Assembly: GCA_963666835.2 (NCBI GenBank)
Contig: CAXXGO010000006.1
Span: 2,272,001-2,336,000 of the forward strand
Direction of reading: 5' to 3'
From: Phycisphaerae bacterium
Lineage (GTDB): Bacteria; Planctomycetota; Phycisphaerae; UBA1845
Length of the DNA stretch: 64,000 nt
Part shown: positions 55,933 through 60,249 of the stretch, piece by piece
How positions within the stretch are numbered: the first letter of the stretch is position 1
How the letters are laid out: each line of letters opens with the position of its first letter
Notes under the pieces: generated by a model
The model's database searches: none
Told to the model about the DNA's origin: nothing
Seen by the model: only the letters and a program-made list of their open reading frames with translations
Translations under genes and position numbers: made by a program

Positions 55933-56340
55933 CGTTCGGAAAAAGCGTCCCGCGCGAGAACCCGGCGCCACCCGTAGCCCGTAGGGCAGGTCGAGGCACG
56001 AGACCTGCCGCAATGGTGCCCATCGCGCGAAGACTCAGCCCCTTCCTTACGGTGCGTGGGCCGGCAAGTTGACCCATGCCGCCGACCTGGCACCACCCGT
56101 AGGGCAGGTCGAGGTACGAGACCTGCCGCAATGGCGCGCGTCGCGCGAAGACTATGGCAGGTCTCGTGCCTCGACCGTGCCCTACAGCCTGCGCGGGCAT
56201 TCTTGATTGGGGAACCCGCAGGTAAGTCCATTGAACTGCGGCCAGAGAGAGAGTACCATTCAAAGGTGAGGCGGCGAACGATATGGAAACCACGAGATGG
56301 TACGCCTCGGTATGCCGTTTGGTCGATGCGGAGGGACACG

Positions 56341-56751
56341 ATGTCGGAATCGCAGACTGAGCCGCGCGTCTGCTGCCCGTCGTGCAGCTTCTCGCTGACG
56401 CAGGAGGCGCAACGGGATTGCGTGTGCGATAACTGTGGCACAGCGCTGGACGCGGAGTATCTGCGGTGTAGACGAGAGGAGCTGATTACCAAGGACGCCC
56501 ACGATCGACGCGTGTTGGCTTGCGAGCGGACTGCCGCCGTGGTCGGTGCAATCATGTTGGCGTCGGGCGCGGCAATGGTCGCCAAGTATGCCCCACTTAT
56601 GATGGTCAGCGGAAGAGCCTCCGGGGTATTCTTGATCGGCACTCTGATCGCCGTTGGCTGGCGCTGGCACAATCGTGATCCGATGTGGCCGGTGCTGGCG
56701 CCACTCGGGTTGTTCTGGTTTCTGTTCGGCTTGTTTTGCGCAGCGTGCTGA
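56341..56751 (+). CDS. Small zinc-ribbon membrane protein
   Basis: GGAGGG ribosome binding site; CPSC..CDNCG followed by three TM segments. Confidence 0.65.
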   Translation: MSESQTEPRVCCPSCSFSLTQEAQRDCVCDNCGTALDAEYLRCRREELITKDAHDRRVLACERTAAVVGAIMLASGAAMVAKYAPLMMVSGRASGVFLIGTLIAVGWRWHNRDPMWPVLAPLGLFWFLFGLFCAAC

Positions 56752-57155
56752 AGTCGGCTATCCCGGATTGTCTATGACGTTCGCACAAATGCGCGTAACT
56801 TACTGTGGCCTCACCCATGTGGGTGACACCACTGAAACACAGCGCGCTTCCACGCCAGGGACAAGCCCTGGAGCTACACTTGGATCACGGCCTCTTGTTC
56901 GTTTGTGCGAGTAGTCAGCACCAAGGCGATGGGGACTGTGTTGCTGGAATTAGTCGACTCGGAGCAGATGTTCGTGACGCCTGGGCATCGGCTCTAGGCC
57001 GTGTTGCCGGCCGGGACGTGTAGCGGGCTCAGCAACACAAGGGGGACCTCCCGGCCGATGATTCTGTCAGGGTCTCTCCCGTGGTCGGTAATCCGCACGT
57101 CCGCACGTCCGCAGGTCGCGGAAGCCGGATGGCCGGTTCCCTGGCTTGCGTCCTG

Positions 57156-57164
57156 TGGTATAAT
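57156..57164 (+). promoter_or_regulatory. Putative extended -10 promoter of the leader-heme operon
   Basis: TGGTATAAT ending 32 nt before ATG 57197. Confidence 0.55.
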
Positions 57165-57196
57165 CTCGGGAGAGAAGCTGTCAGTTTCGGTGGGCC

Positions 57197-57727
57197 ATGC
57201 GTAACAAGAGCAACAACGATCATGAGGGTCGTGCCGGGGTGTTCAGTCGCCTGTTCTGGGGACTGATGATCCTGGCGCATGCTCCGGGTCTGATTGCCGC
57301 GGGGCGTGCCGGGCTTATGAACGGGTTCGGGGTGGAGCTACTCAGCGGGTCCGTCCTGCTGGTTGCCTCCATGGTGTTCTTCGTTCTGAAGATCCGGGGC
57401 GTTCCCTGGCTGCGGCTGCAAACCAATCGCCGGTCTGTTATTGCGGTTTGCCTGGTGGTCATGCTGATCCACCTGGAGTGCATCAGGCCCGGCCTGCGCG
57501 GCGAATTGCTATCCCAATGCACCGTTGTTCTGGTGACGACTTCGCTGGTTTTCGCCGTGCCGCGGGGGGTGCGAAGGGTCCGCTCCTCGTTGGCAAGCAG
57601 GCATTCTTCTTCAAGCTTGCGGAGTTTCGATGACCGCCCGACCGGCGTCATCTGGCTCGACTCATACCGCCCACGTTGTTGGGTCCTCGTTCTTTCCCTG
57701 CTGCGGCTGCGCGCGCCTCCTGCGTAG
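57197..57727 (+). CDS. Four-TM membrane protein ending in a RAPP motif; candidate ribosome-arrest leader of the heme operon
   Basis: Four hydrophobic segments obeying the positive-inside rule, His28 and His92, a tail of about 54 aa ending LRLRAPPA-stop. Lies between a putative promoter and hemH. Confidence 0.7.
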   Translation: MRNKSNNDHEGRAGVFSRLFWGLMILAHAPGLIAAGRAGLMNGFGVELLSGSVLLVASMVFFVLKIRGVPWLRLQTNRRSVIAVCLVVMLIHLECIRPGLRGELLSQCTVVLVTTSLVFAVPRGVRRVRSSLASRHSSSSLRSFDDRPTGVIWLDSYRPRCWVLVLSLLRLRAPPA

Positions 57728-57891
57728 CCGACGAGGGCGTTCCGGTCCGGATTGCGTGGACTTGGGCAACGCCTCTCTCCGATTCGATTCGTTCTTGTCT
57801 TCCGACTGAGGTCTGGTTGTTAATAGCCGTAAGTGAGCCGGCACGCGGGTGCCGGAGGCTCCAAGCGGAGCCGTGGGAGGCATGGCATCAA

Positions 57892-60249
57892 ATGCTCTCG
57901 TTAAAACCGACCAGAGAATCCACCGGCGGGGGAGCCGGGGAATCGATCTCCACGTTATCGGCCACCAAGGGTGTGCTGCTCATCAACCTCGGGACTCCGG
58001 ACGCCCCCGATGTCGAATCGGTGCGCCGGTACCTGGCGGAGTTTCTGGGTGATCCCGAAGTGATCCAACTTCCGCGTGGGCTCAAGTGGCTCAATGGCCC
58101 GCTGGGGCGATTCATCGCCAGACGCCGGGCCCCTAAGTCCGCAAAGTCGTACGAGCAGATCTGGACCGAACGGGGCTCGCCCCTCGGTTCGATCAGCGCG
58201 GAACAGGCCGCGTCCCTGCAGTCGGCGATGCCCTCGGATTGGCAGGTCTTCCATGCCATGCGCTATGGGAAGCCGACGATCGCCGAGACACTCCGGCGGG
58301 TTGAGGATTCGGGGGTCGAGGAACTCGTCGTTATCCCGATGTATCCTCAGTTCAGCGGACCGACTACCGGCACGGCGCTGCGGGCGCTATACGGCAGCCT
58401 CAAGAGAGGCGGCCACCGTCTTAACGTAGCGACGCGTAACTCGTGGTACGACGACGGCGGATACCTGCACGCGCAGGCCAAGCTGATCGCCGATTACGCT
58501 CGACTGCACGGGTTGAGCCCGGAAGATACTCATCTCGTGTTCTCTGCCCATGGGCTGCCGGTGTCCTACGTGGAACGCGGCGACCCGTATCCGGATCACG
58601 TGAACCGCACGGTGGAGTTGGTCGCACAACGCCTCGGCTGGCCCGAAGAGCGCCGGACCTTGGCCTTCCAAAGCCGCGTGGGTCCGACGGCATGGCTGAC
58701 GCCGAATACCGAAGACGTGCTCAGGGAGTTGGGCGATCGCGGGGAACGGCGGGTTCTGGTTTGCTCGGTCAGTTTCACTACCGATTGCCTCGAGACTCTC
58801 GAGGAGATCGATCTGAAGTACCGAGAGATGTTCGAGCGTGACGGCCGGGAGATGTTCCTCTGTCCCGCGTTGAACACCAGCCGCGATTTCATCGCGGCCC
58901 TCAAGAACCTGGCGCTTCGGGGTCCTCAGGCGGTCAAGTCGTGGGGAGCGCGAATGCACCCGTTGTTGAAACCGGCGGCACAGCCCCTTTCGGCTTCTGA
59001 GCATGTCGACTCGCTCGTGTTTGTCGGCGTATCGATGAAGAGCCGGGTCGGTGACGGCAGCGGTCCGGAGCTGATTCACGAAGACGAGCGCGGTCTCGAG
59101 AAACTCAAGAAACCACACGATGAGATCCCCGGGATTCTCCAGGGAATCTGCGGTCGCCGCGGCGCGCGGGAGGCGTTCGTGTGGAACACCTGCTATCGGT
59201 TCGAGTTCTACGGCTGGGAGAGTGATTCCGCGGCCGGGCCCGACGATTGCGTGGTGGCCCGCGTCTGTCAGCAAGTGTTCGCCGGCGACATTCCGGAGGA
59301 TGTCTCGGTGAACGTCCTTCGCGGTCGGGAGGCGTGGCATCATCTGGTGCGCACGGCGGCGGGCCTCAACAGCGGTCTGGCGGGGGATCATGACGTCGTC
59401 GAGCAGCTTCGCACTGCGCACAACCTTGCTCAGCGCGCGGGGACTGCGGGGGTGTTGACCGATCGTCTGGTCAGCGAGGTTACCGAGTTGGAGCGCCGCC
59501 TGCGCAGCGAGACTGCGTGGGGTCGGTTCGACCCCGGCTATTGCTACGCGGCCATGTCCCGGCTTTTGGAGTCAGATGGAATCGACCTTCGCGAGAGTCG
59601 CATACTGGTTGTCGGTGGCTCAACGACGTCGCGATCCGTGCTATCGGCGCTGATTGATCGGTTCGGTGTGCCGGAGCGGCAGTTGACGTTGGCCTATCGT
59701 GGCCACGGCGGCGGGCAGATCAAACTTCTGCGCAGGGCGATTCGCGGCGGACGGCGCCTGCGGGTGCAGTCGTACGGTGAGCCGCAATTGGTGCAGGCGG
59801 TGGCGGAGGCGGATGTGGTGATCTTCGGGATCGATCGCGACGAGCCGGTGCTCGATGCGGGGGCGATCCGGGAGATGCGTGATTTCGCGGATCGGCCTTT
59901 GTTTGTGGTAGACTTCAACACTTTCGGCTCGACCCGCGGATGGGAGGCGGTGTCGGGAGTAACCGTTGTTGATGCGAACCGGCTGGCACAGACGGTTGTA
60001 GATTATACGAACGCAATGTGGACGGACGCGGAGTTTGCCGGAGCTCTGCGGGAGGCAGAGGATTGGATCGCGGAGCACCTGCCGCCGTCTGTCGAAGTGG
60101 ACAAACGCCCGCCGGGCTGCCCCGGCAGTATGGAAGCCGCGGCCGACTCCGGATTGTTGGGGCCGCGGGAGCGTTGGCTACGGTGCGTGCAATGTGTCGG
60201 GAACCGTTCGGTCGACGAGCGAGTTTCGGTCAGGAGCGGAGTATCATGA
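57892..60249 (+). CDS. hemH: Ferrochelatase fused to a C-terminal divergent glutamyl-tRNA reductase (HemA)-like domain
   Basis: N-half: GVLLINLGTP, AMRYGKP, PMYPQFS, FSAHGLP, GDPY, AFQSR, FTTDCLETLEEID. C-half: NTCYRFEFY, HLVRTAAGLNS and a Rossmann-like ILVVGG. GGAGG at 57876-57880, ATG 57892. Confidence 0.88.
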   Translation: MLSLKPTRESTGGGAGESISTLSATKGVLLINLGTPDAPDVESVRRYLAEFLGDPEVIQLPRGLKWLNGPLGRFIARRRAPKSAKSYEQIWTERGSPLGSISAEQAASLQSAMPSDWQVFHAMRYGKPTIAETLRRVEDSGVEELVVIPMYPQFSGPTTGTALRALYGSLKRGGHRLNVATRNSWYDDGGYLHAQAKLIADYARLHGLSPEDTHLVFSAHGLPVSYVERGDPYPDHVNRTVELVAQRLGWPEERRTLAFQSRVGPTAWLTPNTEDVLRELGDRGERRVLVCSVSFTTDCLETLEEIDLKYREMFERDGREMFLCPALNTSRDFIAALKNLALRGPQAVKSWGARMHPLLKPAAQPLSASEHVDSLVFVGVSMKSRVGDGSGPELIHEDERGLEKLKKPHDEIPGILQGICGRRGAREAFVWNTCYRFEFYGWESDSAAGPDDCVVARVCQQVFAGDIPEDVSVNVLRGREAWHHLVRTAAGLNSGLAGDHDVVEQLRTAHNLAQRAGTAGVLTDRLVSEVTELERRLRSETAWGRFDPGYCYAAMSRLLESDGIDLRESRILVVGGSTTSRSVLSALIDRFGVPERQLTLAYRGHGGGQIKLLRRAIRGGRRLRVQSYGEPQLVQAVAEADVVIFGIDRDEPVLDAGAIREMRDFADRPLFVVDFNTFGSTRGWEAVSGVTVVDANRLAQTVVDYTNAMWTDAEFAGALREAEDWIAEHLPPSVEVDKRPPGCPGSMEAAADSGLLGPRERWLRCVQCVGNRSVDERVSVRSGVS

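Follow-up and report, generated by a model that had tools for sequence, protein, structure and literature searches.

We describe here a locus of a Phycisphaerae bacterium (contig CAXXGO010000006.1, positions 2,272,001 to 2,336,000) in which an open reading frame (ORF) with the C-terminal motif Arg-Ala-Pro-Pro (RAPP) precedes hemH, the gene encoding ferrochelatase. The whole stretch of 64,000 nucleotides (nt) that was analysed is called the window, and all coordinates given as plain positions refer to it. An earlier note on this DNA had proposed that the RAPP codons form an anti-Shine-Dalgarno sequence for hemH, and that a ribosome halted at RAPP would occupy these codons and thereby expose hemH's Shine-Dalgarno (SD) sequence, following the logic of secM-secA. 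Our comparison with related loci strongly supports, by conservation, a predicted RAPP-stalling leader ahead of hemH. For the way in which the stall would act, we tentatively prefer a block of Rho-dependent termination to an unmasking of the SD. The genes and the predicted arrest site are located as follows.

57197 to 57727, + strand: leader ORF, 176 amino acids (aa), a helical, hydrophobic protein of membrane type that ends in LRLRAPPA before the stop codon (from the ORF list and homologues)
57710 to 57721, + strand: Arg-Ala-Pro-Pro codons CGC GCG CCT CCT, the predicted arrest site (from the motif in the sequence)
57728 to 57891, + strand: leader between the stop codon of the ORF and the start of hemH, 164 nt
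57892 to 60249, + strand: hemH, a 785-aa ferrochelatase with a C-terminal half resembling glutamyl-tRNA reductase (GluTR) (from Pfam and NCBIfam)

In the hemH product, Pfam assigns residues 26-341 to Ferrochelatase (E 2.9e-98) and residues 402-541 to GlutR_N. Among the NCBIfam models, hemH TIGR00109 scores 285.9 bits, and the hemA models over residues 402-712 stay below their cut-offs. In this fusion the enzyme for the final step of heme synthesis is linked to a part that looks like the enzyme for the first step, and the downstream genes of the relatives are likewise about 2.3 kb long. Concerning translation initiation, the proposed hemH SD, GGAGG, is plausible, with the correction that it serves the in-frame ATG at 57892, at a spacing of 11 nt, and not the adjacent out-of-frame ATG at 57882. 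The assignment is reasonable since the 3' end of the 16S rRNA of this genome (...CACCTCCTTTCT) carries CCUCC, and since GGAG-type motifs stand about 7-11 nt before the hemH ATG in nearly all of the 43 hemH-linked loci described below, whose hemH starts were picked by the best SD match.

The leader ORF family and its R-x-P-P end

A first search detected homologues of the leader ORF in 27 of 41 relatives; a second one covered 101 genomes of the same family and detected them in 80. The set studied here comprises 80 loci, 20 of them from the first homologue search and 60 taken in E-value order; 14 weaker or partial matches were left out. All 80 ORFs end in [R/H]-x-P-P, which is located 1-10 residues ahead of the stop codon, and the tail behind the motif counts only 1-2 residues in 57 of the loci. 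The motif reads RAPP in 66 loci, RPPP in 6, RGPP in 4, RSPP in 3 and HAPP in 1. Internal RAPP motifs are scarce in the genome under study, with only 14 in 2,872 long genes. Residues W21, H28, K65, H92, P174 and P175 are invariant in the 80 homologues and R172 is present in 79 of them; R172, P174 and P175 are kept although overall identity among the homologues amounts to 22-41%. The downstream gene is hemH in 43 of the 80 loci, on the same strand and at a distance of 111-370 nt (164 nt in the window). RAPP as a stalling motif in a hemH leader ORF, as put forward by the earlier note, is thus well supported by an R-x-P-P end that is conserved throughout and by the recurrent position ahead of hemH. 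The predicted stall presumably places Pro174 (57716-57718) in the P site and Pro175 (57719-57721) in the A site, an assignment that we adopt from the literature on RAPP peptides.

The leader ORF protein matched no family of Pfam or NCBIfam. Hydrophobic 19-mers are located at residues 46-64, 81-99 and 104-122, and the last of them ends about 52 residues before Pro174. An AlphaFold2 model displays five helices with a mean predicted local distance difference test score (pLDDT) of 74.5, helices one to three reaching 86-93; a Foldseek search with this model against PDB gave no match at E values up to 1e-3. In the hemH-linked subgroup a WLDxFRPHCW motif is found 10-20 residues ahead of RAPP, a distance which would place it inside the exit tunnel of a stalled ribosome. 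Judged from the alignments, W21, H28, K65 and H92, which lie in hydrophobic helices, and WLDxFRPHCW are candidates for ligand-sensing or arrest-modulating elements.

In the remaining 37 loci mostly signal-peptide proteins are encoded downstream, with PEP-CTERM or IPTL-CTERM tails in three of six sampled. In these paralogue loci (L013-L020, L041, L044-L046, L048, L050-L056, L058, L059, L062-L068, L071-L077, L080) the R-x-P-P membrane ORF stands 100-300 nt upstream of the genes for signal-peptide proteins, which comprise a 'VPFTEDF' group of about 240 aa with PEP-CTERM/IPTL-CTERM tails, a 'MTGVD..WPG' group of about 400 aa and a 'TPSDDRWFYPFNFN' group. Because the paralogues precede such diverse proteins, the R-x-P-P leader family evidently serves unrelated downstream genes. 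The 80 loci therefore provide a natural comparison of the coupling of RAPP arrest, with one ORF family before hemH and before secreted PEP-CTERM proteins.

RAPP and RGPP are described as sequences that cause robust stalling, that proteomes are depleted of and that are over-represented at the C-terminal ends of small localised proteins (PMC12992588). By its C-terminal motif, its divergent remainder, its hydrophobic segments and its downstream gene on the same strand the leader ORF fits this class, and on these sequence features it is a further member of the known RAPP arrest peptides. With ApdA, ApdP and ApcA, and with the small ORFs of the RAPP/RGPP class that Fujiwara et al. 2025 described (PMC12992588), it shares a length below 300 aa, a C-terminal RAPP/RGPP, localisation signals and functionally diverse downstream genes. 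At least four members of the leader ORF family are contained, uncommented, in the file uORF_List_RAPP.csv of that study with 'ferrochelatase' as downstream gene (PMC12992588), and published members appear in a Planctomycetota genome table. Unlike the cases treated by Fujiwara et al. 2025, the family is the subject of no experiment or analysis in the accessible main text, which names neither ferrochelatase nor heme (PMC12992588). Our literature search returned no paper combining ferrochelatase and an arrest peptide; for RAPP arrest with an anti-Shine-Dalgarno sequence, none was relevant by title or abstract among the matches listed.

A C-rich tract at the predicted arrest site and the proposed role of Rho

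Of the readings that we weighed, we place first, though still somewhat short of an even chance, that the predicted stall on the leader ORF controls hemH by blocking Rho-dependent termination and not by SD unmasking, the anti-SD helix being predicted not to form. A ribosome would stall at RAP-P of the leader ORF and shield C-rich RNA from Rho. RNA polymerase would then read through the structured leader of about 150 nt into hemH, and upon release of the stall Rho would terminate transcription. Membrane insertion, or a ligand bound by the invariant Trp/His/Lys/His, might trigger the release. The ten-base match of the earlier note is likely a by-product of the conserved C-rich, G-poor tract around the RAPP codons: C/U-rich arrest codons pair in silico with any G-rich SD, which would account for the match itself, for scattered look-alikes in relatives and for an excess over a null model rich in G at third codon positions. 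In descending order we place behind it SD unmasking, which we consider unlikely, the absence of any cis-regulation, which we consider more doubtful still, and an autonomous switch in the leader, which seems improbable.

The evidence for Rho includes base composition. When a 78-nt window is centred 12 nt ahead of the first Pro codon, C exceeds G in 43 of 43 hemH-linked loci and in 37 of 37 other loci, the mean difference between the C and G fractions (C minus G) being +0.155 and +0.188, respectively. As a control, 2,872 gene ends of this genome gave a mean of -0.024 (standard deviation 0.095), and 2.7% of them reach +0.155. The C>G bubble persists in mostly non-coding windows centred at +40, namely in 86% of the hemH-linked and 92% of the other loci. 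Synonymous positions are affected as well: at four-fold degenerate sites the G fraction is 0.249 in the last 22 codons versus 0.393 in the ORF body of hemH-linked loci, and 0.277 versus 0.378 in the other loci. Rho itself is encoded in this genome (G000:C1:1168970-1170208; TIGR00767 658.8 bits, cut-off 509.45). A second Rho-like open frame (G000:C1:1092155-1093252) scores 439 bits, below the TIGR00767 cut-off. In the window the C-rich tract has the following position.

57626 to 57725, + strand: C>G patch over the last approximately 33 codons of the leader ORF (C minus G +0.04 to +0.10 in 78-nt windows centred on 57626-57704)

Several observations weigh against Rho coupling. The bubble of the window is weak, since it attains +0.10 at most, which corresponds to about the top 11% of gene ends, and it ends at the stop codon, with a value of -0.03 at +14. 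In part the bubble is forced by the C-rich codons for R, A, P, P and Leu. A 60-nt stretch with a C/G ratio of at least 2 occurs in only 2 of the 43 leaders, and a Rho utilization (rut) site confined to the leader was rejected on this ground. Predicted unpairedness is flat around the arrest site (0.34-0.40), unlike the unstructured RNA expected of a rut site, even if such a flat profile does not discriminate between the models. Moreover, a pure rut model leaves unexplained the hemH-specific excess of CUCC, and pairing with the SD is stronger for the natural codons (0.26) than for recoded ones (0.15); both are dealt with below.

A precedent for such coupling is CruR of Bordetella pertussis (Bp2923), a RAPP-terminated upstream ORF (uORF) which controls bfrG by Rho-dependent termination (PMC9426467). 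Its RAPP arrest stops Rho-dependent termination at a C>G bubble that extends from the uORF into the intergenic region (PMC9426467). The locus studied here resembles CruR in that RAPP stands few residues before the stop codon of a uORF on the same strand as the regulated gene, in that, at the level of the family, a C>G bubble covers the ORF's 3' end together with the beginning of the intergenic region, in that the gene downstream has a function in metal or cofactor metabolism, and in that the nascent protein has conserved candidate ligand-binding residues. Unlike CruR, which is a DUF2946 protein with a CXXC motif, the leader ORF encodes a multi-helix hydrophobic protein with invariant W/H/K/H and bears no sequence relationship to it; furthermore, the bubble is weak in this window and Rho dependence is putative here. 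Taken over the whole family, the C>G bubble and the G depletion resemble CruR more than secM-secA.

The ten-base match and the predicted fold around it

SD unmasking, which we rank second, implies that the arrest-site codons GCCUCCUGCG pair with the hemH SD and block initiation until a ribosome stalled on RAPP frees the SD. The base match on which this was founded is present: both arms lie where they had been placed, GCCTCCTGCG at 57715-57724 and CGTGGGAGGC at 57872-57881, and in antiparallel orientation they form 10 contiguous pairs, 8 Watson-Crick and 2 G-U. GCCTCCTGCG spans the last base of Ala173, the CCT codons of Pro174 and Pro175 and the GCG codon of Ala176. The RNA features that bear on its pairing, the folds being predictions and MFE denoting minimum free energy, are these.

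57715 to 57724, + strand: 5' arm of the proposed helix, GCCUCCUGCG; the MFE fold takes it up in a local hairpin, with CCUCC in the 7-nt loop and the 3' end of the arm in the stem
57872 to 57881, + strand: 3' arm of the proposed helix, CGUGGGAGGC, which holds the SD GGAGG (57876-57880)
57704 to 57730, + strand: local 10-bp hairpin (57704-57713 with 57721-57730) that holds the RAPP codons and competes with the proposed helix
57771 to 57777, + strand: CCUCUCU in the leader, with which the SD is chiefly predicted to pair in two of four fold windows (P about 0.7)
57838 to 57872, + strand: two adjacent stable hairpins directly 5' of the SD (57838-57844 with 57849-57855, and 57857-57862 with 57867-57872)

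As a bare duplex, the 28-nt footprint of the stalled ribosome (57704-57731) and the ribosome-binding site (57872-57894) attain -24.2 kcal/mol. This duplex is the strongest among all 28-nt windows of 57400-57845. Of 18,278 background windows drawn from the 64 kb, 0.31% match its energy, and the comparison with 500 synonymous recodings of these codons gave p=0.008. On the other side, 38 of 400 random 171-nt genomic segments can form a run of 10 or more contiguous pairs with the SD region, so that a match somewhere in the leader is an event of about 7-10%. The match is thus moderately unusual if its location is fixed beforehand, yet its discovery was post hoc. Codons for Pro-Pro and Ala-Pro resemble an anti-SD by their nature, so that a 10-nt match to GGAGG alone is weak evidence. 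This calls for caution in general.

In the predicted fold of 57690-57910 the anti-SD helix is absent from the low-energy ensemble, and the probability that the SD pairs with the arrest-site footprint is 0.00. Forcing the helix costs +5.0 to +8.7 kcal/mol in ensemble free energy, which corresponds to P of about 3e-4 to 7e-7 in four fold windows. Nor is the region as a whole more stable than its shuffled versions (z -0.77). The partner of the SD shifts with the boundaries of the fold between 57771-57777, 57667-57673 and 57894-57899. As for the local hairpins named in the earlier note, both are part of the MFE fold (CCGGCAC with GUGCCGG at 57838-57844/57849-57855, GGCUCC with GGAGCC at 57857-57862/57867-57872), although the outer GAGCC arm begins at 57835, one base earlier than had been given.

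If 57700-57735 is forced unpaired to mimic the stalled ribosome, the SD is barely freed: its probability of being unpaired changes from 0.02 to 0.04 and that of the AUG from 0.05 to 0.07. With the arrest site masked, the SD switches to other C/U-rich partners, and in a longer fold its unpairedness is 0.23 before and 0.23 after masking of the footprint. These values of SD accessibility are thermodynamic predictions only. As modelled, SecM-type unmasking is not supported for this window. In a variant, the CCUCC in the 7-nt loop of the hairpin at 57704-57730 could kiss the SD and form a pseudoknot.

SD-masking stems associated with arrest peptides have experimental precedents (PMC10987492). Similar to SecM-secA and uDF_RQH-secDF2 (PMC10987492, PMC7897499), the locus combines a nascent chain that is localised and bears an R-A-(G/P)-P arrest motif near its C-terminus with a downstream SD that is predicted to be mostly paired. 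It differs from them in that a compact SD-masking stem lies at the arrest site there, whereas the helix proposed here spans 147 nt and falls outside the predicted ensemble, in that masking of the footprint leaves the SD hidden, and in that its downstream gene encodes no component of the Sec/YidC machinery. For ApcA, ApdA and ApdP no SD-sequestering hairpins were predicted, according to the accessible portion of that report (PMC7897499).

Predicted anti-SD pairing among relatives

The CCU-CCU codons, which the proposed helix would use in the window, are not conserved. The Pro-Pro codons vary freely, and among the first 12 hemH-linked loci CCU-CC occurs in the window only. The shorter CUCC is present in the x-Pro-Pro codons of 26 of the 43 hemH-linked loci, compared to 8.9 expected from pooled codon usage and about 15 from the Ala-Pro-Pro context of the genome; for the other loci the count is 14 of 37 versus about 13 expected. 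In this genome the Ala codon ahead of Pro-Pro is GCU in 28% of 471 cases versus 12.8% of all Ala codons, and this codon-context bias inflates the apparent enrichment of CUCC.

Of the 43 hemH-linked relatives, 13 have the SD paired with the footprint at the arrest site (P>0.5) in partition-function folds, in registers between -14 and +16, and 30 are without such pairing. L010 and L026 display 10 contiguous pairs at P=1.00, and L004 reaches P=0.81; within one genus, the pairing is found in L010 and L026 but is missing in L038. It is also seen in 5 of 22 non-hemH paralogues. The family mean of SD-footprint pairing (0.261) exceeds that of synonymous recodings (0.150 +/- 0.039), and none of 13 recoded replicates, which have 2-11 loci each above 0.5, reaches the observed value. 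However, the recoding null draws on background codons rich in G at the third position, so that any G-poor tract would beat it. Duplex energies were significant (p<0.05) in 4 of 43 loci (Fisher p=0.014, Wilcoxon p=0.25). The arrest sites pair slightly better with their own than with swapped ribosome-binding sites (-14.0 vs -13.2 kcal/mol, permutation p=0.025), and the composition of the leaders shifts from C-rich at the 5' end to G-rich at the 3' end, as SD pairing would favour. Masking of the footprint raised SD unpairedness by +0.058, as compared to +0.027 for a control position 30 nt upstream and +0.031 for one 60 nt upstream (p=0.17 and 0.11). The p-values obtained over the family are optimistic, because the relatives are not independent.

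Covariation is evidence neither way. In the sole near-identical strain (runs X2/X3, one sample) both arms of the helix are unchanged, which is uninformative for the helix. A search for related loci with the leader protein yielded a single locus from a metagenome, which was distant (34% identity) and was not used, and nothing in genome contigs, hence no close relatives for covariation. At the level of the family, anti-SD pairing thus finds partial support in a weak excess over controls; most loci lack it and its register varies. From these folds the anti-SD helix would at best be a lineage-specific option in relatives. The C>G bubble on which Rho coupling would depend is found in all 80 loci, the option of SD pairing in some only.

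Other explanations

Ranked third, and more doubtful than SD unmasking, is the absence of any cis-regulation. The leader ORF would then encode an ordinary small membrane protein, its R-x-P-P end would serve the finished protein, as a docking or degradation tail or a contact to membrane-associated ferrochelatase, and hemH would simply stand next to it in an operon. Besides the tail, the protein body is indeed conserved too, with W21, H28, K65 and H92 kept in all 80 homologues and the first three helices modelled at high pLDDT, which suggests a folded functional product, and 176 aa are long for a pure leader peptide. SecM, though, is of similar size with its 170 codons (PMC7897499). A motif which is never more than 10 residues away from the stop codon, and which recurs before unrelated PEP-CTERM/IPTL-CTERM genes, fits a position-dependent translational device better. 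Further, a protein tail leaves unexplained the synonymous depletion of G and the extension of the C>G bubble into non-coding sequence, and the motif belongs to the robust stallers that proteomes avoid except at the C-termini of small localised proteins (PMC12992588).

The remaining alternative, that the leader regulates hemH alone and without the upstream ORF, with the internal anti-SD at 57771-57777 and the two hairpins acting as an RNA switch or thermosensor (for a ligand or protein), seems improbable: the predicted pairing of the SD with 57771-57777, the folding of the leaders, their conserved length and the hairpin stems kept in a variant strain speak for it, but the SD partner is unstable across fold windows, neither an Rfam match nor a common motif was obtained, and the invariant R-x-P-P end just upstream would be unexplained. 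The leaders of the 43 relatives have a median length of 154 nt (interquartile range 131-164). They are more structured than dinucleotide shuffles, with a mean z of -1.0 for the family and -1.5 for the window, and 9 of 43 fall below -2. No sequence motif is common to the 43 leaders, no k-mer occurring in more than 13 of them, and an Rfam scan of 56500-58500 gave no match at E values up to 1. A scan of 56900-58000 revealed no promoter, so that the leader lacks a sigma-70-like one, and it gave no intrinsic terminator there either; the sole terminator-like site of this region is situated inside the ORF, at a rate not above that of shuffles. In runs X2/X3 a low-depth allele of a related strain carries 7 substitutions and 2 one-base deletions within 57822-57864. 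Those of its changes which fall within the two hairpins hit loops (57845, 57863 and 57864) and leave the stems untouched, in this one sample.

Implications and neighbouring features

If the stall is real, a nascent membrane protein would set the last step of heme synthesis across a bacterial family, and control by arrest peptides would extend from secretion and copper uptake to tetrapyrrole metabolism. A further, more speculative possibility, which we regard as improbable, is that the leader ORF is a co-translational sensor of heme (or of porphyrin or iron) whose Trp21, His28, Lys65 and His92 would bind the cofactor during insertion of the helices into the membrane. The folding force would then free the RAPP stall and shut off the ferrochelatase-GluTR fusion, and the arrest codons would in some lineages also serve as anti-SD. 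Should this hold true, it would represent the first feedback loop of tetrapyrrole synthesis by a nascent chain. At 56056-56751, ahead of the leader ORF and in its orientation, there is an ORF of 231 aa with no Pfam family.

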